This document shows positions 642-42,237 of a stretch of 42,237 bases of DNA, in pieces. Position numbers and translations under genes: made by a program. Source of the stretch: Eubacteriales bacterium (GTDB taxonomy: Bacteria > Bacillota > Clostridia > Oscillospirales > CAG-272); the NCBI GenBank assembly GCA_045602305.1, contig JAZSBJ010000039.1:1-42237 (forward strand), written 5' to 3'. The notes beneath the pieces were generated by a model. That model was given only the letters and a program-made list of their open reading frames with translations. It was not told the DNA's origin and searched no databases. Numbering within the stretch: position 1 is the stretch's first letter; each line of letters opens with the position of its first letter.

Positions 642-877
642 TTGAATTGCCTCCTTCTAAAATTTCTTTTTCAGGGGGGCGATTGCCATTCACACTGCGC
701 CGCGCGTTTCAAACGCCTACGAATGAAAGCCGGGAAACAGCCTTTCCGCAAAGCTAAGACCCGGGGGAACGGTTTGACGCACGCGACGAATGTTTTCGCC
801 CGATTTGTCGGACATACTCCACGAAAATTACCCGCTTTCGCGGCAACCTCTCGCTTCAACGCATATCAAGCCTTACT

Positions 878-31026: not shown

Positions 31027-31953
31027 TTACTCCTGCACGTCCATCGTATCGAGGTCGTATGGCGTGGTCTGGTAAACGTAGTAGTTGAGCCAGTTGGAGT
31101 AAAGAAGATTGGCGTGCGCGCGCCAAAGAACGAGGGGCGGATTCTCGTGATTGTCGTTCGGAAAATAGTTTTCGGGGACGCGAATGGGCTTGCCTTGCGA
31201 GAGATCGCGAAAGAATTCCTTGGCAAGCGTGTGCGGGTCGTATTCCGAGTGTCCCGTGATAAACACCTGTCTTCCCTCTTTCGCAATCACAGCGTACACA
31301 CCCGCCTTAGGCGAAGTGGAAAGCACGGTGAGCGCGGGGTGGGCGGAGATCTCCTCTTCCCTTACCTCGGTGTGGCGGGAGTGCGGCACGTAGAAGGTGT
31401 CGTCAAAGCCGCGGAACAGCATACATTTGCGGTCAAGCACCGTATGCTCAAACACGCCGAACATTTTTTCGGAAAGCGGATACTTCCCTATGCCGTAATG
31501 GTAGTAGAGCGCCGCCTGCGCCCCCCAACAAATGTGGAAGGTGCTATGCACGTTTTTCTTGCTCCACTCCATTACCGCACAAAGCTCATCCCAATACTCG
31601 ACCTCCTCGAACGCCATCTGCTCTACGGGCGCACCCGTGATGATCAGACCGTCGAACTTTTGATCCTTGACGTCCTCAAAGGTCTTATAAAAGGCGAGCA
31701 TATGCTCTTCCGAGGTGTTCTTTGACTTGTGCGTTTTGGTGTGTAAAAGGGTTAATTCGACCTGAAGCGGTGAGTTACCGAGCAGGCGCGAGAGCTGTGT
31801 TTCGGTGTCGATCTTGGTCGGCATCAAATTCAAAACGGCGATCTGCAAAGGACGAATGTCCTGCGTCTGCGCGCGCGTTTCGGTCATAACGAAGATGTTT
31901 TCTTCCGCCAAGGTTTTGGTGGCGGGCAGCTCGTTAGGAATGCGGATCGGCAT
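31027..31953 (-). CDS. metA: Homoserine O-acyltransferase, MetA family (O-acetyl/O-succinyl)
   Basis: 308 aa. [11 protein letters not shown]...ENIFVM...[18 protein letters not shown] is the canonical MetA N-terminus. Confidence 0.93.
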
Positions 31954-31989
31954 AGCGCATCGCTCCTTTCTTTGCTTTTTTCGGTGGGT

Positions 31990-33276
31990 TTAGATGGCGG
32001 CGAGTGCCTGCTCAATGTCTGCGATCAGGTCCTCAGCGGCTTCAAGACCGCAAGAAAATCTGACGAGATCGGCAGAAACGCCGCAAGCCTCAAGCTCCGC
32101 GTCGGAGAGCTGACGGTGGGTGGTGGATGCGGGGTGCAAGCAGCAGCTGCGCGCGTCCGCTACGTGGGTTTCGATGGCGGCGATGCGAAGACCCGTCATA
32201 AATTTCTCTGCGGCAGCTCTGCCGCCCTTAACGCCAAAGCTGACGACACCGCAGGTGCCGTTCGGCATATACTTCTTGGCAAGCGCGTAGTCGGCGTCGC
32301 CCTCAAGAGAAGGATACTTTACCCAAGCGATCTTCTCGTGCGAGGCGAGGAAGCGCGCAACGGCGAGTCCGTTCTCGGCGTGCTTCTTCATACGGACGTG
32401 CAGGCTCTCAAGTCCAAGGCCGAGAATAAAGGCGCTCATCGGCGATTGCGTCGTACCGAGGTCACGCATCAGCTGTGCGGTCGCCTTGGTGATGAACGCG
32501 CCCTCTTTGCCAAATCGCTCGGCATAGGTGATGCCGTGATAGCTGTCGTCGGGCGTTGTGAGTCCGGGGAAACGGTCGGCGTGCGCCATCCAGTCAAACT
32601 TACCGCCGTCCACGATCGCGCCGCCGACACAAGAGCCGTGGCCGTCCATATACTTGGTGGTCGAGTGCGTCACGATGTCCGCGCCCCATTCGAGGGGACG
32701 GCAATGGGCGGGGGGTGCGAAGGTGTTGTCGATGATGAGGGGAACGCCGTGCGCGTGCGCCACCTTAGCGAAAAGCTCGATGTCAAGCACGTTGAGTGCG
32801 GGGTTGGCGATGGTTTCGCCAAAGAGCGCCTTGGTGTTCGGACGGAAGGCGGCGGCAAGCTCCTCTTCGCTCGCGCTTGGCGAAACGAAGGTAAAGTCGA
32901 TGCCCATTTTCTTCATCGTCACCGAGAAAAGATTAAAGGTGCCGCCGTAGATGGCAGAGGAAGCCACCACGTGGTCGCCTGCATTTGCAATGTTAAACAC
33001 GGCAAAAAAGTTTGCCGCTTGACCCGAGGACGTAAGCATTGCGGCAGTGCCGCCTTCCATCGCGCAAATTTTCGCCGCCACCGTGTCGCAGGTGGGGTTT
33101 TGCAGACGGGAGTAGAAATAACCCGATGCCTCAAGGTCAAAGAGCTTGCCCATATCCTCGCCCGTAGCGTATTTGAAGGTCGTGCTTTGCACGATGGGGA
33201 TTTGTCTGGGCTCACCGTTGCCGGGCGTATAGCCGCCCTGTACGCACACGGTATCAATGTGCTGTTTCTTTTCCAT
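31990..33276 (-). CDS. metY: O-acetylhomoserine sulfhydrylase (aminocarboxypropyltransferase), PLP-dependent
   Basis: 428 aa. The blocks YSRLQNPT, SSGQAA and the PLP-lysine context HSTTKYMDGHG are typical of MetY/Cys-Met metabolism enzymes. Confidence 0.9.
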   Translation of the reverse strand: MEKKQHIDTVCVQGGYTPGNGEPRQIPIVQSTTFKYATGEDMGKLFDLEASGYFYSRLQNPTCDTVAAKICAMEGGTAAMLTSSGQAANFFAVFNIANAGDHVVASSAIYGGTFNLFSVTMKKMGIDFTFVSPSASEEELAAAFRPNTKALFGETIANPALNVLDIELFAKVAHAHGVPLIIDNTFAPPAHCRPLEWGADIVTHSTTKYMDGHGSCVGGAIVDGGKFDWMAHADRFPGLTTPDDSYHGITYAERFGKEGAFITKATAQLMRDLGTTQSPMSAFILGLGLESLHVRMKKHAENGLAVARFLASHEKIAWVKYPSLEGDADYALAKKYMPNGTCGVVSFGVKGGRAAAEKFMTGLRIAAIETHVADARSCCLHPASTTHRQLSDAELEACGVSADLVRFSCGLEAAEDLIADIEQALAAI

Positions 33277-33364
33277 AACCTGACTTCCTTTCTAGGAAAT
33301 AACTTTAAATGTAAAGTTTGGTTGTCGTTGTTAAAAACAAATATTTACATTTTAAGAGGAAATC

Positions 33365-33390
33365 AAGGCTGTTTGCGTACAAACAGCCTT
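33365..33390 (-). terminator. Hairpin after ilvE (possible weak or bidirectional terminator)
   Basis: AAGGCTGTTT (33365-33374), a 6-nt loop, AAACAGCCTT (33381-33390). The T-run is better on the plus strand (GTGTTTTTTG) than on the minus strand (GATTTCCTCTT). Confidence 0.5.
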
Positions 33391-33404
33391 GTGTTTTTTG
33401 TAAA

Positions 33405-34472
33405 TCAGACCTCGACTCTCCAGCCGAAGGGATCGGGGCGGCGGCCCCACTGGATGCCCGTGATCTCGTCGTAGAGCTTTTGGGTAAGCTCGCCGATCTC
33501 ACCGCCGCCGATCTGCATCACGTCGTCCATATAACGGAGCTTGCCGACAGGGGAAACGACAGCGGCAGTACCCGTACCGAAGACTTCCTCAAGGGAGCCG
33601 TCCTTTGCGGCGGCGACCAGCTCGTCGACCGAAATGCGGCGTTCCTCGACCTCATACCCCCAGCTGCGGCAAAGGGTGAGCACGGAGTTACGGGTAACGC
33701 CGGGGAGAATGCTGCCGTTGAGCATCGGCGTGACGATCTTGCCTGCGATCTTGAAGAAGATGTTCATAGCGCCAACCTCTTCAATATATTTTCTCTCTAC
33801 GCCGTCCAGCCACAGAACCTGCGAATAGCCGTCGTCGTGTGCCTTGACCTGCGCGATGAGAGATGCGGCGTAGTTACCGCCCGTCTTGGCGAAGCCCATA
33901 CCGCCTTTGACGGCACGGACGTACTCGTCCTCGATCCAAATACCGACGGGAGCAAGTCCACTCTCATAGTATGCGCCCGAGGGAGAAAGAATGACCATAA
34001 AGAGATAGGTCTTAGAGGGTGCCACGCCCAGAAAATCGTCCGTCGCGATCACAAAGGGACGAATGTAGAGCGAGGTGCCGGGCTCGGTGGGGATCCAATC
34101 CTTATCCACCTCGACCACAGCGCGGACAGCTTCTACGAAATCCTCTTCGGGAATGTTGGGGATGCAAAGACGGTCGTTGGACTGATTGGCGCGCTTTGCG
34201 TTCATATCGGGACGGAAAAGGTATGCCTTTCCGTCGTCGCCCATATATGCCTTAAGTCCCTCAAACATCTCCTGTCCGTAATGGAATACCATCGACGCGG
34301 GAGAAAGAGAAAGATTCTGATAGGGGACGATGCGTGCGTCGTGCCAGCCCTTTCCTTCCGTATAGTTCATCACGAACATATGGTCGGTAAAGATATGACC
34401 GAAGCCAAGCTTTTCGCCCTTTGCGGGCTTCGCCTTGGGCGCAGTCGTTTTTTCGATCTTGATGTTCAGCAT
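33405..34472 (-). CDS. ilvE: Branched-chain amino acid aminotransferase
   Basis: 355 aa from the ATG at 34472: MLNIKIEKT...GFGHIFTDHMF...YGQEMFEGLKAY...AKTGGNY...LPGVTR, typical class IV aminotransferase IlvE blocks. The track ORF's extra 44 N-terminal residues lack a ribosome-binding site. Confidence 0.9.
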   Translation of the reverse strand: MLNIKIEKTTAPKAKPAKGEKLGFGHIFTDHMFVMNYTEGKGWHDARIVPYQNLSLSPASMVFHYGQEMFEGLKAYMGDDGKAYLFRPDMNAKRANQSNDRLCIPNIPEEDFVEAVRAVVEVDKDWIPTEPGTSLYIRPFVIATDDFLGVAPSKTYLFMVILSPSGAYYESGLAPVGIWIEDEYVRAVKGGMGFAKTGGNYAASLIAQVKAHDDGYSQVLWLDGVERKYIEEVGAMNIFFKIAGKIVTPMLNGSILPGVTRNSVLTLCRSWGYEVEERRISVDELVAAAKDGSLEEVFGTGTAAVVSPVGKLRYMDDVMQIGGGEIGELTQKLYDEITGIQWGRRPDPFGWRVEV

Positions 34473-34497
34473 TTCTTTTTGCCTTCTTTCTATCGAA

Positions 34498-35033
34498 TTA
34501 TTCTTCGTAATTGTAGCCCGTTTCGATCGCCTTGAGGTTGATCTCAAGAAGATCGGCGTGCTTTGCCGATACGACCTTGGAAAGCGCATCGCGGATGCCT
34601 TCATAGGACACCATACCCGTTTCGCGGATGAGCTTGCCCACCATAATCATATTGGCGAGCGTGGGGAAGCCTGCCTCCTTGGCAAGGCGGGTCGCGGGAA
34701 TGTAGAACGCATCCACATCCGCTCTCTTTACCTTGCGCTCAATGAGGGTGGAATCCACAAAGATCTTGCCGCCCGCGACGGTTGCGTCCTCGTACTTGTC
34801 GAGCGAGGGCAGGTTCATTACCATCAAAACGTCGGGGTTGGACACGATGGGAGAGCCGACGGGCTCGTCACTGATGATGACCGAGCAGTTTGCCGTACCG
34901 CCGCGCATTTCGGGACCGTAAGAGGGGAGCCAGCTTAACTGCTTGCCCTCAAGGAGCCCCTTATATGCGAGAAACTTGCCTGCGAACAGAACGCCCTGTC
35001 CGCCAAAGCCTGCAATCAAAAGGTTGGTCGTTT

Positions 35034-35037
<4 letters not shown>
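34498..35037 (-). CDS. 2-oxoacid:ferredoxin oxidoreductase, gamma subunit
   Basis: 179 aa. [14 protein letters not shown]...[14 protein letters not shown] is the conserved gamma-subunit signature. Its start overlaps the beta subunit stop (ATGA). Confidence 0.9.
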
Positions 35038-35789
<752 letters not shown>

Positions 35790-35792
35790 TGC

Positions 35793-36848
35793 TTATTCTC
35801 CTTTCACCATCGCCACGATCTTGGCATAGACCTCTTCGGGCGTGGGGATCATACCGCCTGCGCGGTTGCAAAGGTAGACGGGTCTTGCACAGCGAATGGC
35901 AAGCTCGATGTCCTCGATCATCTGACCCATCGAAAGCTCAACGGAAAGGAACGCCTTGACCGTCTTTGCCGCCTCGGCAAAGGCGCGCTTCGGGAAGGGC
36001 CAAAGGGTGATGGGGCGGATCATACCGACCTTCATACCGTTTGCACGCGCTTCGTTGACGGCGTTTTTCGCAACGCGGGAAGCGATACCGAAGGCAACGA
36101 CGCAATACTCGGCGTCGTCCATCAAGTAGGACTCGTAGCGTGCCTCGGTTTCTTCGATCTTTGCGTAACGCTCGTAGCGCTTAAAGTTCTCTTCCTCGAG
36201 CTTTTCGGGCTTAAGGAAAAGGGAGTTTACGATGTTGTGCGTTCTCTTGCATTCGGTGCCCGTAAGCGCCCAAGGCTTTTCAAAAGTGCGTGTCTCGCCC
36301 GTAGGAAGCTCTACAGGCTCCATCATCTGACCCATCGTACCGTCGGCAAGGATCATCGAGGTCATACGGTATTCGTCTGCCTTTTCAAAGCCGAGAACGG
36401 TGAGGTCTGCCATCTCCTGCACAGAGGCAGGGGCGTACACGAGCATATGGTAGTCGCCGTGACCGCCACCGCGCGTTGCTTGGAAGTAGTCGGACTGGGA
36501 AGGCTGAATGCCGCCAAGACCGGGGCCGCCGCGCTGTACGTTGACGATGAGGGCGGGCAGGTCTGCGCCTGCAAGATAGGAGAGGCCCTCGCTCTTAAGC
36601 GAGATTCCGGGGCTGGAAGAAGAGGTCATAACGCGAAGGCCTGCGCCCGCAACGCCGTAGACCATATTGATTGCGGAGATCTCGCTCTCCGCTTGGAGAA
36701 ATACGCCGCCGATCTTAGGCATACGCTTTGCCATATACGCGGCAATTTCCGTTTGGGGGGTGATGGGATAGCCGAAATAATGACGGCAGCCCGCAAGGAT
36801 CGCCGCCTCGGCGATTGCCTCGTTACCCTTCATAAGTACCTTAGCCAT
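35793..36848 (-). CDS. 2-oxoacid:ferredoxin oxidoreductase, alpha subunit
   Basis: 351 aa. MKGNEAIAEAAILAGCRHYFGYPITPQTEI is the typical alpha-subunit N-terminus. Confidence 0.9.
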   Translation of the reverse strand: MAKVLMKGNEAIAEAAILAGCRHYFGYPITPQTEIAAYMAKRMPKIGGVFLQAESEISAINMVYGVAGAGLRVMTSSSSPGISLKSEGLSYLAGADLPALIVNVQRGGPGLGGIQPSQSDYFQATRGGGHGDYHMLVYAPASVQEMADLTVLGFEKADEYRMTSMILADGTMGQMMEPVELPTGETRTFEKPWALTGTECKRTHNIVNSLFLKPEKLEEENFKRYERYAKIEETEARYESYLMDDAEYCVVAFGIASRVAKNAVNEARANGMKVGMIRPITLWPFPKRAFAEAAKTVKAFLSVELSMGQMIEDIELAIRCARPVYLCNRAGGMIPTPEEVYAKIVAMVKGE

Positions 36849-36860
36849 TGTCTTACCTCC

Positions 36861-37067
36861 TTATTTCTCGACGCGGATGACGCAGTCGGGGCACATCGTT
36901 GCACAGAACGCGCAGCCGATGCACTTCGATTCGTCGGTCATCTCCGCAGGGGAATGTCCTTTTTTGTTGATCTTGTCCTTTGCGATCACAAGGATCTTTT
37001 TGGGGCAGGCGGAAACGCAAAGTCCGCAGCCCTTGCAAAGGTCGGTGTCAAATGTCACTTTAGCCAT
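36861..37067 (-). CDS. 2-oxoacid:ferredoxin oxidoreductase, delta subunit (2x[4Fe-4S] ferredoxin)
   Basis: 68 aa with two CxxCxxCxxxCP motifs (CKGCGLCVSACP and CIGCAFCATMCP). Confidence 0.9.
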   Translation of the reverse strand: MAKVTFDTDLCKGCGLCVSACPKKILVIAKDKINKKGHSPAEMTDESKCIGCAFCATMCPDCVIRVEK

Positions 37068-37083
37068 TTTAATATCCGTCCTT

Positions 37084-37740
37084 TTATGTTATTTTTTTCT
37101 GTAAGCGAATGGAAAACGCCTCGGGGATCGCATCGCCTAAGCGTGCGTCCGTAGCGGTAAAGAGGAGAGGGAGCGAAGAGAGCCTTGAAAGCCGTTCGGC
37201 TTCCGCTTGCTTGGCAAGGATATCGCCCGCCGTCGTTTCTTCTCCAAGGTTTGAGTTGTGTACGATCGCGGTAAAGGGGATTCCGCACGCCGCCTCGATC
37301 TCGCGCATCACCTCAAGCGCGGCTTCCGCCGTCGGGGTGAGGGGGCGGTAAAAGTTGGCGACGAAGATGCTTTCATAATTTCCCTCTTCCAAAATGGCGG
37401 GGGCGTATCTGCCGAGCGCGAGCGCGCCACGGTCATCGCCGCCCACGTCAAGGACCGCATAACGGCTCTTGTCCTCGGTGAGCGCATATAGCTCTGCGGG
37501 CAGGGCGGGAAGGTCCACGTTGCTGTTGGCGTATGCAGAGGAGATCAGGCGAATGCCTGCGGAAAGAAAATCCTCGGCACTGTCCTTGGTGCGGAAATAC
37601 GGATTGACGATGTCAAGGTCCGCAATGGTGACGGGGTGTCCCTTTTCCGCGAGATGTAACGCATAGTTTACAGCAATGTTGGTTTTCCCGCTGCCGTAAT
37701 GTCCCGAAAAGAGGGTAACTCGTTTGGGTGTCAGTTTCAT
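37084..37740 (-). CDS. P-loop NTPase of the MinD/ParA/CooC-like (SIMIBI) type, function unknown
   Basis: 218 aa. The N-terminal Walker A is LFSGHYGSGKTNIAVNYA, followed by IADLDIVNPYF, which resembles the switch region of MinD/CooC-type ATPases. Confidence 0.6.
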   Translation of the reverse strand: MKLTPKRVTLFSGHYGSGKTNIAVNYALHLAEKGHPVTIADLDIVNPYFRTKDSAEDFLSAGIRLISSAYANSNVDLPALPAELYALTEDKSRYAVLDVGGDDRGALALGRYAPAILEEGNYESIFVANFYRPLTPTAEAALEVMREIEAACGIPFTAIVHNSNLGEETTAGDILAKQAEAERLSRLSSLPLLFTATDARLGDAIPEAFSIRLQKKIT

Positions 37741-37752
37741 TTTCTTTGCTAA

Positions 37753-40053
37753 TTACAGCTTGTTGCGAATAATTTTTCCACTCGTCGTTTTGGGAAGCTC
37801 CTCGCGGAACACGACGATACGGGGATATTTGTAAGGAGCCGTCTTTTGCTTGACGTAGTCCTGGATCTCCTTTTTGAGGTCATCCGAGGGCTCGGTGCCC
37901 TTCGTCAAGACGATGGACGCCTTGACCACCTGACCTCTTACGGGATCGGGGGCGGCGGAAACACCGCACTCAAGCACGTAGGGAAGCTCCATAATGACGT
38001 TCTCGATCTCGAAGGGACCGATGCGGTAGCCCGAGGACTTGATGACGTCATCCACTCTGCCGACGTACCAATAGAAGCCGTCCTCATCGCGCCACGCGGT
38101 ATCGCCCGTGTGGTAAAGACCGTCGTGCCAAGCCTCGCGCGTTTTCTCCTCGTCGAGGTAGTAGCCTGCGAAAAGACCGCAAGGCGCGCCGTTTTCGGTA
38201 TGTACCACGATCTCACCCGTTTCACCGATGCCCACGCTCTTGCCGTCGGGGTCAACGATATCCACGTCGTAAAGGGGCACGGGCTTCCCCATCGAGCCGA
38301 GCTTGTGCGCGTCACCCACAAGGTTACCGATCATCAGAGTGCCCTCGGACTGACCGAAGCCTTCCATAATCTTAACGCCCATCAAGCGCTCGAGCTGACG
38401 GAACACCTCGGGGTTGAGTGCCTCGCCCGCCGTGGTTGCACGCTCGACCGAGGTCATATCGTACTTGCTGATATCCTCTTTGATCATCATACGGTACATC
38501 GTGGGGGGCGCGCAGAAGGTGGTGATGTGATATTTTGCGAACAGGGGGAGAATGTCTGCCGCCGAGAAGCGGTCAAAGTCGTAAACGAAGGTGGCACCCT
38601 CTGCCATCCACTGACCGTAGAGCTTGCCCCACATTGCCTTTGCCCAGCCCGTGTCCGAGATGGTAAAGTGGAGTCCTTCGGGGTTGACTCCGTGCCAATA
38701 TTTGGCGGTGAGGAAGTGACCGAGCGCATACTTGTAGTTGTGTGCGGCGATCTTGGGATAGCCCGTCGTGCCCGAGGTGAAGAACATCAGCATCAGATCG
38801 CTACCTGCGGGCGTTTCCTCGGTGCGGTCGAAATGGGTGCTGTAGAGCTTATATTCCTCGTCGAAACTGCGCCAGCCCTCTCGCGTGCCGCCGACCATAA
38901 TGCGGTTGACGACGTTCGGGCATTCGGCAAGTGCCGCCTCGGCTTCCAGCACAGTTTCCTCGTCCGAGGTGCAAAGGAGCGCGGATACGCCCGCCGCCCC
39001 GAAGCGATAGGAGAAGTCGTGCGACTTTAACTGATTGGTTGCGGGAATCGCGATGGCGCCGAGCTTGTTAAGACCGAGCATCGCAAACCAGAACTGATAG
39101 TGACGCTTGAGAACCAGCATCACGCGGTCGCCCTTCTTGATGCCGAGCGACTTAAAGTAGTTGGCACACTGCGCCGACGCACGCTTCATATCGAGGAAGG
39201 TGAAGCGGCGCTCGTTCTTTTCCTTGTCAAGATAGAGCATCGCGAGTTTTTCGGGCTTGGTCTTTGCCAGCTCATCCACGATGTCGTATGCAAAGTTAAA
39301 GGTTTCGGGGTTCTTGAAGGAGATCTTCTTAAGAACACCGTTTTCGTCCTCGACGGCGTCCACCCACTTGTCGTAAACGCGCTCCGTGGGCTCGGATACC
39401 ACCTTACGGCGCGGCTTATCCACAACGGATGCCTTTGCCGTTTCAAGCTCGGGAATGGGTTCACCCGAGGGGTTGAGGACCATTGCGTAGAAGGTACAGT
39501 CTTTTCCGCCCACAGCCTTCATACCGTGGGGGGTGGAGCTGTCGTAATAGATGCTGTCGCCCTCGTGAAGGGTGACCTTGTAGTCGCCCACCTGCACGCA
39601 AAGCGATCCCGAAATGACGATGTCGCACTCCTGACCGTCGTGCGTGGTAAGCTCGATCTCAGCGTCCTCGGCGCCCTTCGTATACGCGGCTCTGACGAAC
39701 AGAGGCTCGGCAATACGGTTACGGAAGGCAGAGGCAAGGTTAAAATACACCATACCGTGTGCCTGCTCGATGCGCTGTCCTTCCCCGTTTCTCGTTACGG
39801 TGTAGGCGGCGAGGCGAGGGCTCGTACCCTCGATAATATCCGTCACGTCCACGTTGAACGCCTGCGCGCAGCGGTAGATAAACGCGAAATTTAAATCGCT
39901 CTCTCCCTTTTCGCACGCAAGGTATTCCTGCTCGCTGACGCCCGTCTTTTTCGCCATCTCGCGGACGGTCAGCTGCTCGATTTCGCGAAGCTCGCGAATA
40001 CGCGCCGCCATTTCCTTGATCTTGGCGTCAAGACTCTTGTTTTGATTTTCCAT
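37753..40053 (-). CDS. Fusion protein: XRE-type HTH, cupin domain and AMP-forming acyl-CoA synthetase (ANL superfamily, medium/short-chain type)
   Basis: - 766 aa.
- aa ~15-70 (nt ~39843-40011): IRELREIEQLTVREMAKKTGVSEQEYLACEKGESD, an HTH_3 motif.
- aa ~95-195 (nt ~39468-39770): beta-rich cupin-like region (...DIVISGSLCVQVGDYKVTLHEGDSIYYDSSTPHGM).
- Ligase motifs: FFTSGTTGYPK, YGQSE-type GFGQSEG, YHTGD, SSGYRIGPFEIE and the terminal TTSGKI. Confidence 0.88.
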   Translation of the reverse strand: MENQNKSLDAKIKEMAARIRELREIEQLTVREMAKKTGVSEQEYLACEKGESDLNFAFIYRCAQAFNVDVTDIIEGTSPRLAAYTVTRNGEGQRIEQAHGMVYFNLASAFRNRIAEPLFVRAAYTKGAEDAEIELTTHDGQECDIVISGSLCVQVGDYKVTLHEGDSIYYDSSTPHGMKAVGGKDCTFYAMVLNPSGEPIPELETAKASVVDKPRRKVVSEPTERVYDKWVDAVEDENGVLKKISFKNPETFNFAYDIVDELAKTKPEKLAMLYLDKEKNERRFTFLDMKRASAQCANYFKSLGIKKGDRVMLVLKRHYQFWFAMLGLNKLGAIAIPATNQLKSHDFSYRFGAAGVSALLCTSDEETVLEAEAALAECPNVVNRIMVGGTREGWRSFDEEYKLYSTHFDRTEETPAGSDLMLMFFTSGTTGYPKIAAHNYKYALGHFLTAKYWHGVNPEGLHFTISDTGWAKAMWGKLYGQWMAEGATFVYDFDRFSAADILPLFAKYHITTFCAPPTMYRMMIKEDISKYDMTSVERATTAGEALNPEVFRQLERLMGVKIMEGFGQSEGTLMIGNLVGDAHKLGSMGKPVPLYDVDIVDPDGKSVGIGETGEIVVHTENGAPCGLFAGYYLDEEKTREAWHDGLYHTGDTAWRDEDGFYWYVGRVDDVIKSSGYRIGPFEIENVIMELPYVLECGVSAAPDPVRGQVVKASIVLTKGTEPSDDLKKEIQDYVKQKTAPYKYPRIVVFREELPKTTSGKIIRNKL

Positions 40054-40082
40054 AGCTTCTCCTTTGCCGAGGGGGAAAAGGA

Positions 40083-40378
40083 ATAAACAAAGCCCGCCTC
40101 AAAGACTTAAGATACTTTGAGACGAGCTATAATTTCTTATATCCCGCGGTACCACTCAAATTGCGTTCAAGCGAACGCCACTCTCGGACTCCAACGAAGT
40201 CCTATGCCTTAACGCAGCAGTCACGGAGAGGTTCTACGGCGTCCCTACGGAGCGCTTTCTTCCTCTCGGCTCGGAAGCTACAAGCAAAAGCAAGGTCTTT
40301 ACCGACTTGCACCTACCGTCGGCTCTCTGCAAAAGCCATTTGCTCTGCCCTCTTCGTCACAGCCTTTTATTCCTTTAT
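40083..40378 (-). promoter_or_regulatory. T-box riboswitch leader (tRNA-sensing transcription attenuator) with intrinsic terminator
   Basis: All elements are read on the minus strand.
- Stem I base and K-turn: GGC-UGUGAC-GAAG ... CUUC-C-GA-GCC.
- AG bulge AGAGAG (40328-40323).
- Distal loop GGUAGGUGCAA (40317-40307).
- F-box-like GCGUUA (40215-40210).
- Stem III GCGUUC-GCUU-GAACGC (40178-40163).
- T-box AAUUUGAGUGGUACCGCGGGA (around 40160-40143).
- Antiterminator: UUUGAG/CUCAAA plus GCGGG/CUCGU, flanking the bulge UGGUACC.
- Competing terminator: GCUCGUCUCAAAG...CUUUGAGGCGGGC (40127-40092) followed by UUUGUUUAUU. Confidence 0.9.
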
Positions 40379-40384
40379 GGTAAC

Positions 40385-40413
40385 AGTATATCAAGTCTTT
40401 CGGGGTTTGTCAA
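40385..40413 (-). promoter_or_regulatory. Near-consensus sigma-A promoter driving the T-box leader (-35 TTGACA, 17-nt spacer, -10 TATACT)
   Basis: On the minus strand, TTGACA is at 40413-40408 and TATACT at 40390-40385, separated by exactly 17 nt. Confidence 0.8.
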
Positions 40414-40462
40414 GTCTTTTTTTGTTTTTTTATATCCTTAAATATAAAAATTTGGCAACTCC

Positions 40463-42237
40463 TTACAGCTTGTTGTGCATAATCTTACCGCTGATGGTCT
40501 TGGGAAGCTCATCGCGGAACACAACGATACGGGGGTACTTGTAGGGGGCCGTATGCGTCTTGACGTATTCTTGGATCTCACGCTTCAGCTCTTCCGAGGG
40601 CTCGGTGCCCTTGGTGAGAACGATGGACGCCTTAACGACCTGACCTCTCACTTCGTCAGGCTCGGCAGAAACGCCACACTCAAGGACGTAGGGGAGCTCC
40701 ATTATGACGTTTTCGATCTCAAACGGACCGATGCGGTAGCCCGAGGACTTGATGACGTCGTCGATACGGCTCACGTAATGGAAGAAGCCGTCCTCGTCGC
40801 GCCAAGCGACGTCGCCCGTGTGATACATACCGTCGTGCCAGACCTCACGCGTTTTTTCCTCGTCGCCGTAGTAGCCGAGGAAGAGTCCGCAAGGCACGCG
40901 CTTATCGGTACGCACGACGATCTCTCCGTTTTCACCCGTGCCGACACTGTTGCCGTCCGCGTCCACGATGTCGATGTCGTAGAGGGGCATAGCACGCCCC
41001 ATCGAGCCGAGCTTGGGGGTGGTGCCCGCCATATTGGCGATGGTGAGGGTGGTTTCGGTCTGACCAAAGCCTTCCATTACGGAAAGTCCCGTTGCCTTTT
41101 TAAACTGCGAGAACACCTCGGGGTTGAGTGCCTCGCCCGCCGTCGTTGCGTGGCGGATGGAAGAAAGATCGTACTTTGAGAGATCTTCCTTGATGAGCAT
41201 ACGGTACATCGTGGGGGGCGCGCAGAAGGTGGTGATGTGATACTTGGCAAAGAGAGGAAGAATTTCTGCGGCGTGGAAACGGTCAAAGTCGTAGGTAAAG
41301 ACCGCGCCCTCTGCCATCCACTGACCGTAGAGCTTGCCCCAAAGCGCCTTGCCCCAGCCCGTTTCGGAGATGGTCAAGTGCAGATCGGAGGGGCGAATGT
41401 CGTGCCAATATCTTGCCGTCGGGTAATGACCGAGCGCATACTTGTAGCTGTGCGCGGCGATCTTGGGATAGCCCGTCGTTCCCGAGGTGAAGAACATCAG
41501 CATCGGGTCGGAGCCGCAAGCGGTGTCCTCGGTTCTCTCGTAATGCGTGCTGAAAAGGGCATACTCCTCTTCAAAGGAGTGCCAGCCCTCACGCGTGCCG
41601 CCGACGAGGATCTTGGTTGCAAGGGTGGGGGATTCCTTGGCGGCAACGTCGATCTCCTCTGCCGTATTGTCAGAGCCGACGCAAAGGATCGCCTTTACGC
41701 CTGCCGCATTAAAGCGATAGGAGAAGTCGTGCGACTTCAGCTGGTTGGTTGCGGGGATAGCGATCGCACCCAGCTTGTGAAGACCGAGGATGGCAAACCA
41801 GAAGGTGTAGTGGCGCTTTAAGACCAGCATTACGCGGTCGCCCTTCTCGATGCCGAGGGACTTGAAATAGTTTGCGGCGCGCGCGGACGCACGCTTGATG
41901 TCGCGGAAGGTGAAGCGGCGCTCTACCTTGTCGCTATCCAGGTGAAGCATTGCGAGCTTGTCGGGATATTTGTCCGCAAGCGCGTCCACCGTATCAAAGG
42001 CAAAGTTATATTTTTCCTCGTTTTCAAAGGCGATGTCGGTCAAAACACCCTTTTCGTCCTCGGTGCATTTGATAAAATCGCCGATGAGCAGCTTCTCACG
42101 TCTGCCCGATACGGCAAGGCTCTCTGCCTGCTCCTTTTCATCTGCTCCCTCTTCACCGGGAAGCACGACGGCGCAGAAGACGCACTCGCGCCCGCCAACG
42201 GCGATCATACCGTGGGGGGTGCCGCTTTCGTAATAGA
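40463..42237 (-). CDS. Second HTH(?)-cupin-acyl-CoA synthetase paralog; the 5' end is beyond the right edge
   Basis: The reading frame stays open to the window edge. The last codons translate as ...YYESGTPHGMIAVGGRECVFCAVVL, aligning with the cupin C-terminus (IYYDSSTPHGMKAVGGKDCTFYAMVL) of the downstream paralog. The ligase part is collinear and highly similar (FFTSGTTGYPK, YHTGD, SSGYRIGPFEIE, TISGKI). Confidence 0.88.
   Translation of the reverse strand, partial: YYESGTPHGMIAVGGRECVFCAVVLPGEEGADEKEQAESLAVSGRREKLLIGDFIKCTEDEKGVLTDIAFENEEKYNFAFDTVDALADKYPDKLAMLHLDSDKVERRFTFRDIKRASARAANYFKSLGIEKGDRVMLVLKRHYTFWFAILGLHKLGAIAIPATNQLKSHDFSYRFNAAGVKAILCVGSDNTAEEIDVAAKESPTLATKILVGGTREGWHSFEEEYALFSTHYERTEDTACGSDPMLMFFTSGTTGYPKIAAHSYKYALGHYPTARYWHDIRPSDLHLTISETGWGKALWGKLYGQWMAEGAVFTYDFDRFHAAEILPLFAKYHITTFCAPPTMYRMLIKEDLSKYDLSSIRHATTAGEALNPEVFSQFKKATGLSVMEGFGQTETTLTIANMAGTTPKLGSMGRAMPLYDIDIVDADGNSVGTGENGEIVVRTDKRVPCGLFLGYYGDEEKTREVWHDGMYHTGDVAWRDEDGFFHYVSRIDDVIKSSGYRIGPFEIENVIMELPYVLECGVSAEPDEVRGQVVKASIVLTKGTEPSEELKREIQEYVKTHTAPYKYPRIVVFRDELPKTISGKIMHNKL

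Follow-up and report, generated by a model that had tools for sequence, protein, structure and literature searches.

The window analysed here is a stretch of 42,237 nucleotides (contig JAZSBJ010000039.1 of assembly GCA_045602305.1, from an Eubacteriales bacterium of the class Clostridia). Near its right end, on the minus strand, lies a T-box riboswitch leader with its own promoter (40413..40083), and behind it runs a 6.65-kb operon (40053..33405) that encodes an acyl-CoA ligase fused to a helix-turn-helix (HTH) and a cupin domain (fusion B), a P-loop NTPase, a four-subunit 2-oxoisovalerate:ferredoxin oxidoreductase (VOR) and the aminotransferase IlvE. The leader was read on the minus strand from 40560 to 39900, and each motif was then placed by coordinate. 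Comparable loci were collected by scanning one genome for each GTDB species with a pattern, which gave at least 80 distinct loci on which all counts below rest; all of them belong to Clostridia of the gut or rumen that are uncultured, under labels such as Acutalibacteraceae, Oscillospiraceae and Christensenellaceae, and their synteny was compared by tblastn. Fusion B has many full-length relatives at 72–97% identity, and the nearest relative on a longer contig, locus L081, shows 89% protein identity and 80–85% DNA identity.

The leaders of these loci fall into three classes: class A precedes an upstream fusion gene, class B is the window type, and class C belongs to a unit with a LeuA-like gene. 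Specifier counts were taken from the columns of per-class MAFFT alignments (class B, the Val class, n = 72 related leaders); extraction by regular expressions or anchors was set aside because it returned several solutions per leader and noisy counts. For covariation, an alignment (A2) of 59 distinct orthologous leaders was used, the window's leader included. The leader is laid out as follows:

40385..40413, minus strand: sigma-70-type promoter, with TTGACA at 40413-40408, a 17-nt spacer and TATACT at 40390-40385.
40262..40364, minus strand: Stem I, with P1 GGC/GCC, K-turn, P2 GAAG/CUUC, specifier loop, P3 GCAGAG/UUUUGC, AGAGAG bulge and distal loop.
40279..40281, minus strand: specifier codon GUA (Val), with the purine G40278 next and the CUUC strand of P2 after it.
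40173..40261, minus strand: Stem II through Stem III, with Stem II GAGAGG/CCUCUC and its internal motif GAAGAAA...AGUAGA, Stem IIA, the pseudoknot UGCU/GGCA and Stem III GCGUUC/GAACGC.
40173-40200, minus strand (A2 columns 192-220): lineage-specific extra hairpin GGACU/AGUCC, between the IIA/B pseudoknot and Stem III.
40115..40162, minus strand: T-box sequence and antiterminator, with helices UUUGAG/CUCAAA and GCGGG/CUCGU flanking the 7-nt bulge UGGUACC.
40082..40127, minus strand: intrinsic terminator, a 13-14 bp stem GCUCGUCUCAAAG/CUUUGAGGCGGGC (40127-40092), then UUUGUUUAUU (40091-40082).

An earlier annotation made from the letters of the window (the sequence-only reading) had described this promoter and a set of T-box hallmarks (K-turn, AGAGAG bulge, distal loop, Stem III and antiterminator), and each of them was found where it had been placed. 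The promoter agrees with the consensus at 11 of 12 positions and carries a TG extension, (TG)ATATACT; the class-B consensus TTGACa-N17-TGaTAnaaT is kept across 72 loci. Within 40385-40420 of the same strand, two copies of the 9-nt string AAGACUUGA overlap the -35 and the -10 hexamers (AAAGACTTGACA...AAAGACTTGATATACT); this doubling, which has no conservation in the class consensus, may be a chance coincidence. In Stem I, the K-turn is formed by UGUGAC/CGA around GAAG/CUUC (40361-40352), the AGAGAG bulge occupies 40328-40323 and the distal loop GGUAGGUGCAA occupies 40317-40307. Stem I thus has the K-turn base, specifier loop, AG bulge and distal loop that mark a member of the family, and the Rfam alignment shows UGA...GA, AGAGAG and GGUAGGUGCAA. 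The T-box sequence itself, AAUUUGAGUGGUACCGCG, lies at 40162-40145, and the start codon ATG at 40053 has a ribosome-binding site, AAGGAG, ahead of it.

The sequence-only reading had called the element a canonical T-box. A local scan with the Rfam T-box model RF00230 returned a full-length match (model positions 1-219) at 40369..40115, with a score of 93.0 bits and an E value of 4.3e-21, which bears out that identity and speaks against the refuting outcome that the same reading had named, a lack of any significant RF00230 match. RF00230 was not listed in the scan of the whole window at the gathering threshold, because the score of 93.0 bits sits exactly on the cutoff of 93 bits; the result "no T-box" from that scan was dropped in view of the local match (93.0 bits, E 4e-21). 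Among the related loci, full-length scores range from 80 to 91 bits in class A, from 74 to 92 bits in class B and from 112 to 117 bits in class C. The class A and B T-boxes of L015, L052, L076 and L081 all stay below 93 bits, although their E values are 1e-14 to 1e-19. Leaders of these two classes lie mostly under the Rfam threshold, so standard pipelines pass over them and the regulon would be invisible in the routine annotation of metagenome-assembled genomes. We identify the minus strand from 40413 to 40083 as a genuine classical transcriptional T-box leader with its own promoter.

The fold is conserved among the orthologues, a point on which the sequence-only reading had proposed a comparison of orthologous leaders. 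The structure was written on A2 as Stem I (P1-P5), Stem II, Stem IIA, the IIA/B pseudoknot, Stem III and the antiterminator, plus the extra hairpin, and it was compared with structures whose 3' partners had been slid by 1-3 columns and with 500 shuffles on five measures. Over the 59 leaders, 93.4% of the cells are in standard pairs, compared with 37–47% when the 3' partners are slid. Compensatory changes on both sides occur in 40 of 58 pairs, and none of the 500 shuffles reaches any of the five measures. Helices 1-6 of Stem I covary, with P1 and P2 paired in 100% and the distal helix in 95%; Stem II reaches 99% pairing, and covariation is found in 5 of its 6 pairs, in 4 of 6 pairs of Stem III, in 3 of 4 pairs of the IIA/B pseudoknot and in all 5 pairs of the extra hairpin. 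This hairpin is not part of the Rfam consensus, which treats it as an insertion, and a similar sequence is visible in the consensus of the class A and class C leaders. The antiterminator (helices 12 and 13) is 99.7% paired and the terminator 98.7% paired. Furthermore, 74 of 80 loci carry an unaltered T-box core, GUGGUACCGCG, at a distance of 80-190 nt ahead of the fusion B gene. The T-box fold was not recovered by minimum-free-energy folding, whether applied to the whole leader or to Stem I by itself; this is expected because Stem I is rich in motifs, and comparative analysis was used instead. These results argue that the leader is a conserved, selected RNA structure, beyond chance resemblance.

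The 5' strand of the terminator is the 3' strand of the antiterminator (40127-40115), and because this strand is common to both, the two structures are mutually exclusive, as the sequence-only reading had maintained. The terminator, with its U-tract, has a folding energy of -21.1 kcal/mol (z = -6.7, with no shuffle folding as well), whereas the antiterminator, which has the canonical 7-nt UGGUACC bulge, reaches -12.2 kcal/mol. A stronger terminator that shares a strand with a weaker antiterminator reads as the expected default-off design. By default, the nascent leader would form the strong terminator, and RNA polymerase would halt ahead of the fusion B gene. When valine is scarce, the anticodon of uncharged tRNA-Val(UAC) would pair with the GUA specifier in Stem I, the elbow of the tRNA would contact the AGAGAG bulge and the distal loop, and the free 3' end, ACCA, would pair with the UGGU of the bulge, stabilising the weaker antiterminator and permitting read-through. 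These steps follow established knowledge of T-boxes and are what we infer for this leader.

Which amino acid does the leader read? In the Rfam alignment, GUA with a G after it occupies the specifier triplet of the model, and GUA is the codon favoured in the sequence-only reading. In the same alignment, the helix above the specifier loop has to take up three non-canonical pairs. A tandem UUGCUU UUGCUU allows this helix two registers, of which GCAGAG/UUUUGC is the one supported by the family alignment. In that register the specifier loop is small, with AGG on its 5' side and UUGUAG on its 3' side, and in either register the loop ends with GUA-G. Across class B, the specifier column reads GUA in 70 and GUC in 2 of the 72 leaders (G 72, U 72, then A 70 and C 2), and the next base is always a purine (G 60, A 12). 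The loop bases 5' of GUA, on the other hand, vary among orthologues (UUU, CU, GG, AU and others). The same positional rule for the specifier is given in TBDB, where Val T-boxes prefer codons with 3'-A or 3'-C (PMC7778990).

The equivalent column holds AUC in 53 of 53 true class-A leaders and CUC or CUG in 22 of 22 class-C leaders, and, inside one locus (L076) and again in L081, Rfam assigns AUC, GUA and CUC to one position of its model. Three branched-chain codons that vary only synonymously, at one structural position in three neighbouring leaders, make what we regard as the strongest internal control for the specifier. A UGU (Cys) frame was rejected: L002 reads GGUAG at this place, and tRNA-Cys, with the discriminator U73, would be expected to need a UGGA bulge, not UGGU. 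UGGU is found in all leaders, the 72 of class B among them, and predicts a tRNA with the discriminator A73, as had been proposed from the sequence of the window. The tRNA gene search found no gene for tRNA-Val(UAC) in the window or in 50 loci; the only tRNA-Val gene found, in L024, has the anticodon CAC and ends in ...UCUCC-A-CCA, so it fits A73. The valine specificity of the window's T-box is, in our reading, strongly supported. GUA or GUC, moreover, stands upstream of genes for VorB, an enzyme of 2-oxoisovalerate, and IlvE, so that specifier and genes match.

The genes behind the leader, and the gene that lies upstream of it, are these:

37753..40053, minus strand: gene 1, fusion B, 766 aa, with XRE-type HTH, cupin and AMP-forming acyl-CoA synthetase.
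37084..37740, minus strand: gene 2, P-loop NTPase of the SIMIBI class (Mrp/MinD/HypB-like), 218 aa, with weak ParA/CbiA Pfam matches only.
34498..37067, minus strand: genes 3-6, four-subunit VOR by Pfam and NCBIfam, with delta at 37067..36861, alpha at 36848..35793, beta at 35789..35034 and gamma at 35037..34498.
33405..34472, minus strand: gene 7, IlvE, with NF009897 at 507 bits (cutoff 307) and TIGR01123 ilvE_II at 422 (cutoff 250).
33364..33391, minus strand: 12-bp hairpin after ilvE from a terminator-like scan, with only a moderate minus-strand U-tract.
40463..42237, minus strand: fusion paralogue A, HTH-cupin-ligase, partial; the frame runs through the cupin YYESGTPHGMIAVGG to the edge of the window and contig.

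The genes of the operon are packed with gaps of 4-25 nt or short overlaps, and the hairpin at 33364..33391 is its probable end. The order ligase, P-loop gene, VOR genes, ilvE is kept across most of the 80 loci; in L010, L058 and L073, ilvE lies ahead of the P-loop gene rather than after the VOR genes. Fer4, POR_N with PFOR_II, TPP_enzyme_C and POR are matched in adjacent genes, and the alpha subunit passes the NCBIfam model NF005507 for VorB (537 bits, cutoff 399). The open reading frame listed for ilvE reaches 34604; since the family alignment begins at residue 52 of that frame, and from the translation, the true start is likely 34472, behind an AGGAGG ribosome-binding site. The combination of acyl-CoA ligase, 2-oxoacid oxidoreductase and ilvE was thus correctly recognised in the sequence-only reading.

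So was the nature of the first gene product, an HTH-cupin-acyl-CoA ligase fusion that is not a standard T-box target. In our reading, it does fit a biosynthetic logic, that of isobutyrate activation. Fusion B matches HTH_19/HTH_3, Cupin_2, AMP-binding and AMP-binding_C in Pfam. Its best NCBIfam family is MbcS (NF047394), with which it aligns over the full length at 439 bits, below the equivalog cutoff of 850, and its closest solved structure is 3ETC, MacsMa (E 9e-190; the next match is at 1e-101). MacsMa prefers 2-methylbutyrate (PMC10455477), and MbcS of Staphylococcus aureus selects 2-methylbutyrate and isobutyrate and uses isovalerate poorly (PMC10026030). Fusion B is predicted to be an isobutyrate-CoA ligase of the MbcS/Macs-like mode. 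A search of the Protein Data Bank with the HTH-cupin module alone gave nothing informative. The P-loop NTPase belongs to an unannotated family, whose members, where named, are called "hypothetical protein". Its AlphaFold2 model has a mean predicted local distance difference test score (pLDDT) of 84, and the best fold match is HypB, an ATPase of the Mrp/MinD type (5AUQ), at a template modelling (TM) score of about 0.5. In most loci the gene keeps its place between those of the ligase and VOR, and its product is possibly, as a guess, a maturation factor for VOR, an Fe-S enzyme.

The ligase encoded upstream of the leader is more than a plain ligase, a point missed in the sequence-only reading: its gene is a truncated second HTH-cupin-ligase paralogue, A, with 70% identity to fusion B over 589 aa. 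By tblastn, a second fusion-type gene lies about 2.6 kb upstream of B in most loci. The genes at the upstream position are nearer to A in 62 of 62 cases, and those at the B position are nearer to B in 79 of 80. In the relatives, paralogue A has its own promoter and an Ile T-box whose codon is AUC in all 53 true cases (for example L081:6962-7196 and L076:6073-6318); the base after this codon is A, C or G, hence not always a purine. L081 accordingly reads T-box(Ile)-complete fusion A, then T-box(Val)-fusion B, then the same genes as the window. The A and B ligases are two old orthologous groups, each tied to its own specifier, and paralogue A, behind its Ile T-box, would activate 2-methylbutyrate.

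A third T-box, about 7 kb downstream or divergent, carries a Leu specifier in 22 loci (CUC 19, CUG 3). Under its control are a LeuA-like synthase of 461 aa and an 835-aa protein in which a TIM barrel resembling xylose isomerase (AP_endonuc_2) is fused to an AMP-forming ligase (L015:15721-19926; L076:15752-15986). The selectivity of MbcS and MacsMa agrees with a layout in which the Ile and Val T-boxes each govern such a ligase and the Leu T-box governs one of another type. We read the window's T-box as one module of a codon-matched Ile/Val/Leu set. In L081, the LeuA-like unit (318-807) has a consensus promoter, a leader of about 270 nt and a hairpin with U-tract; this leader gave no RF00230 match at E <= 0.001 and has no T-box core, so it is a different leader. 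A further pair of genes, metY (O-acetylhomoserine sulfhydrylase) and metA, follows ilvE in the window (31027-33276, minus strand); in L031, L040, L061 and L080 the pair moves, lying after ilvE, before fusion A or between the P-loop and VOR delta genes.

In which direction would the operon work? AMP-forming ligases act in the activating direction, and VOR is reversible and best known from amino-acid fermentation. A switch that opens on uncharged tRNA-Val should raise the supply of valine, which argues for the anabolic direction, and the order ligase, VOR, IlvE gives the route isobutyrate, isobutyryl-CoA, 2-oxoisovalerate, valine. In the first step, the MbcS/Macs-like AMP-forming ligase would activate exogenous isobutyrate to isobutyryl-CoA. 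The four-subunit VOR, with reduced ferredoxin and CO2, would then carboxylate isobutyryl-CoA reductively to 2-oxoisovalerate, perhaps helped to mature by the co-transcribed SIMIBI P-loop NTPase, and IlvE would transaminate 2-oxoisovalerate to valine. Carboxylation of isoacids to branched-chain amino acids (BCAA) is a recognised route in the rumen (PMC7356843). It is therefore quite likely, in our judgement, that a tRNA-Val T-box here couples valine starvation to an operon for the salvage of isobutyrate to valine.

The reverse use of the same genes, from valine through 2-oxoisovalerate to isobutyryl-CoA, or the scavenging of isobutyrate for membrane fatty-acid primers, seems improbable. The known reversibility of VOR and its fame in amino-acid fermentation would suit the oxidative version, and the best-matching ligase family, MbcS, serves fatty-acid synthesis (PMC10026030). 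Opened by uncharged tRNA-Val, however, such an operon would drain or bypass valine when it is already scarce, and an AMP-forming ligase would be pointless where catabolism already yields the acyl-CoA. The co-transcription of ligase, VOR and IlvE matches a route from acid to amino acid, and the parallel Ile and Leu T-box modules, with their LeuA-like gene, point to biosynthesis as well.

There is a very slight chance that the T-box is real but answers to another tRNA, be it Leu through CUU or UUG or Ile, or to all three branched-chain amino acids. Both CUU and UUG occur in the window's specifier loop (UUGCUUGUAG), and the sequence-only reading had kept these Leu triplets open; A73 is common to tRNA-Leu, tRNA-Ile and tRNA-Val, so UGGU does not discriminate among them, and VOR and IlvE usually take all three branched-chain substrates. 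The positions of the two Leu triplets are, however, free to vary among orthologues, in contrast to the specifier, which is GUA or GUC in every one of the 72 leaders, and CUU and UUG were rejected on this count. The sole change at the third position is the synonymous one from A to C, and the dedicated Ile (AUC) and Leu (CUC/CUG) T-boxes of the same loci argue for a division of labour. Hardly credible is a decaying T-box relic with the HTH-cupin part of the first gene product as the actual transcription factor: the score at the gathering cutoff with orthologues below it, the missing S-turn consensus and the common one-component layout of an XRE-type HTH with a cupin sensor would suit it, yet the specifier, the T-box core, the terminator complementarity and 40 covarying pairs are kept across 59 species-level leaders, the promoter and leader consensus of no class shows a conserved operator-like motif for the HTH, and the HTH-cupin part could add a second layer of control without replacing the T-box.

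Several observations weigh against valine-starvation control of isobutyrate salvage as set out above. The whole reading rests on sequence, and the direction of VOR, the substrates of the ligases and the roles of the P-loop and HTH-cupin parts are predictions of it; as VOR is reversible, the anabolic direction is argued from the regulation. The ligase scores under its family cutoff (439 against 850), and its substrate is a predicted one. The window's leader scores exactly on the gathering cutoff, with class A and B orthologues mostly below it at 74-92 bits. Furthermore, its specifier loop is without the consensus letters AGUA/GAA of the S-turn, as are class A and B leaders alike: the model's AGUA is aligned with GGCA and its GAA with GCU; a non-canonical fold equivalent to the S-turn may or may not form there. 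The S-turn is a typical feature of T-boxes but not a strictly defining one.

The remaining points concern the arrangement of the modules. No terminator was found between paralogue A and the B promoter, so that transcripts from A would meet the Val terminator. Under isoleucine starvation alone, VOR and IlvE would then sit behind the Val terminator, and leakage or co-starvation would be needed. Six loci (L050, L053, L056, L061, L062 and L073) have no T-box between adjacent A and B genes, and consequently the matching of codon to ligase is not universal. The three of them with enough upstream sequence, L050, L061 and L073, carry an Ile T-box ahead of A, and in these the whole ligase-VOR operon would be under Ile T-box control.

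Could the three modules form one addressable system? We put forward only tentatively, as possible rather than probable, that many uncultured gut and rumen Clostridia make BCAA by a modular, codon-addressed salvage of environmental branched-chain fatty acids (BCFA), in which AUC would address a 2-methylbutyrate ligase, GUA an isobutyrate ligase and CUC/CUG the TIM-barrel-ligase for isovalerate, all feeding one shared ferredoxin-dependent VOR and IlvE, and in which the HTH-cupin part would sense the acid, making the ligases bifunctional enzyme-regulators. If this were true, expression would need starvation (through the tRNA) and substrate (the acid) together, and the arrangement would account genetically for the classical isoacid requirement and represent a T-box regulon of a new type.

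More generally, a T-box specifier can serve as a functional label, since it names the amino acid that the downstream genes should supply. Here the label GUA suggests that VOR, usually annotated as catabolic, works with the ligase and IlvE toward valine, and the paralogous modules would likewise work toward isoleucine and leucine. This provides testable gene candidates for the reductive carboxylation of isoacids to BCAA, which is genetically poorly defined in gut and rumen Clostridia and is relevant to isoacid feed supplements and to BCFA cross-feeding in the human gut.

Elsewhere on the window, 10524-30687 (minus strand) holds very large open reading frames with almost no Pfam matches (1005, 1276, 1263, 663, 1818 and 357 aa). 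Two of the products, of 1276 and 1263 aa, are tandem paralogues, and each has a Tubulin_2 domain at its N-terminus (E 2e-36 and 7e-32, respectively); the 1005-aa gene is syntenic in L081. At 796-868 (minus strand), the S10-Clostridia ribosomal protein leader RF03136 scores 44.2 bits, above its cutoff, which supports a Clostridia origin of the contig.

Compared with classical RF00230 T-boxes, such as those of Bacillus subtilis tyrS and glyQS and the Val leaders of TBDB, the window's leader has the same full Stem I, Stem II, IIA/B pseudoknot and Stem III, the same 14-nt T-box sequence with a UGGN bulge, the same competing terminator and antiterminator, and a specifier that occupies positions 2-4 counted from the loop's 3' end, with a purine after it; GUA/GUC in window-type leaders fits the 3'-A/3'-C preference of the Val T-boxes in TBDB (PMC7778990). 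It differs in its cutoff-level score, with orthologues below, and in the lack of the S-turn consensus, and window-type leaders differ in the conserved, covarying hairpin between IIA/B and Stem III. The targets differ as well, being neither an aminoacyl-tRNA synthetase nor a de novo biosynthesis operon nor a transporter. Neither full-text literature searches nor the survey of Wels 2008 turned up a T-box described ahead of VOR or acyl-CoA ligase genes, and Vitreschak 2008 and Gutierrez-Preciado 2009 may mention one. The T-box mechanism is thus ordinary, and the regulon with its codon-matched modular layout appears to be undescribed.

The nearest regulatory parallel is the Leu T-box of the B. subtilis ilv-leu operon, one of several T-boxes on de novo BCAA genes recorded, in part, by the surveys cited in PMC3766115. 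There, too, a T-box ties BCAA starvation to the genes that make the amino acid in question, an aminotransferase included. The B. subtilis operon, however, encodes the acetolactate route, whereas the window's operon would salvage BCFA through an acyl-CoA ligase and a ferredoxin-dependent VOR, and window-type loci have three specifiers (Ile, Val and Leu) over adjacent modules.

For the chemistry, Allison and Bryant reportedly found in the 1960s that rumen bacteria carboxylate branched-chain fatty acids reductively to BCAA, and an anabolic VOR of Methanothermobacter is said to have been described by Tersteegen et al. in 1997. The three predicted steps are the same in these systems, with a 2-oxoacid:ferredoxin oxidoreductase in reverse. 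The rumen route, however, was worked out by labelling, and in Clostridia it largely lacks assigned genes and regulation, whereas here a complete set of candidate genes and an amino-acid-specific RNA switch are seen in the sequence.

Finally, the ligase domain of fusion B (residues ~245-766) aligns end to end with both MbcS of S. aureus and MacsMa of Methanosarcina acetivorans (3ETC), two enzymes that prefer 2-methylbutyrate and/or isobutyrate. Both of these enzymes lack the N-terminal XRE-HTH and cupin part, of about 200 residues, that fusion B carries, and while MbcS has its role in lipid synthesis, fusion B would have its role in the synthesis of an amino acid.

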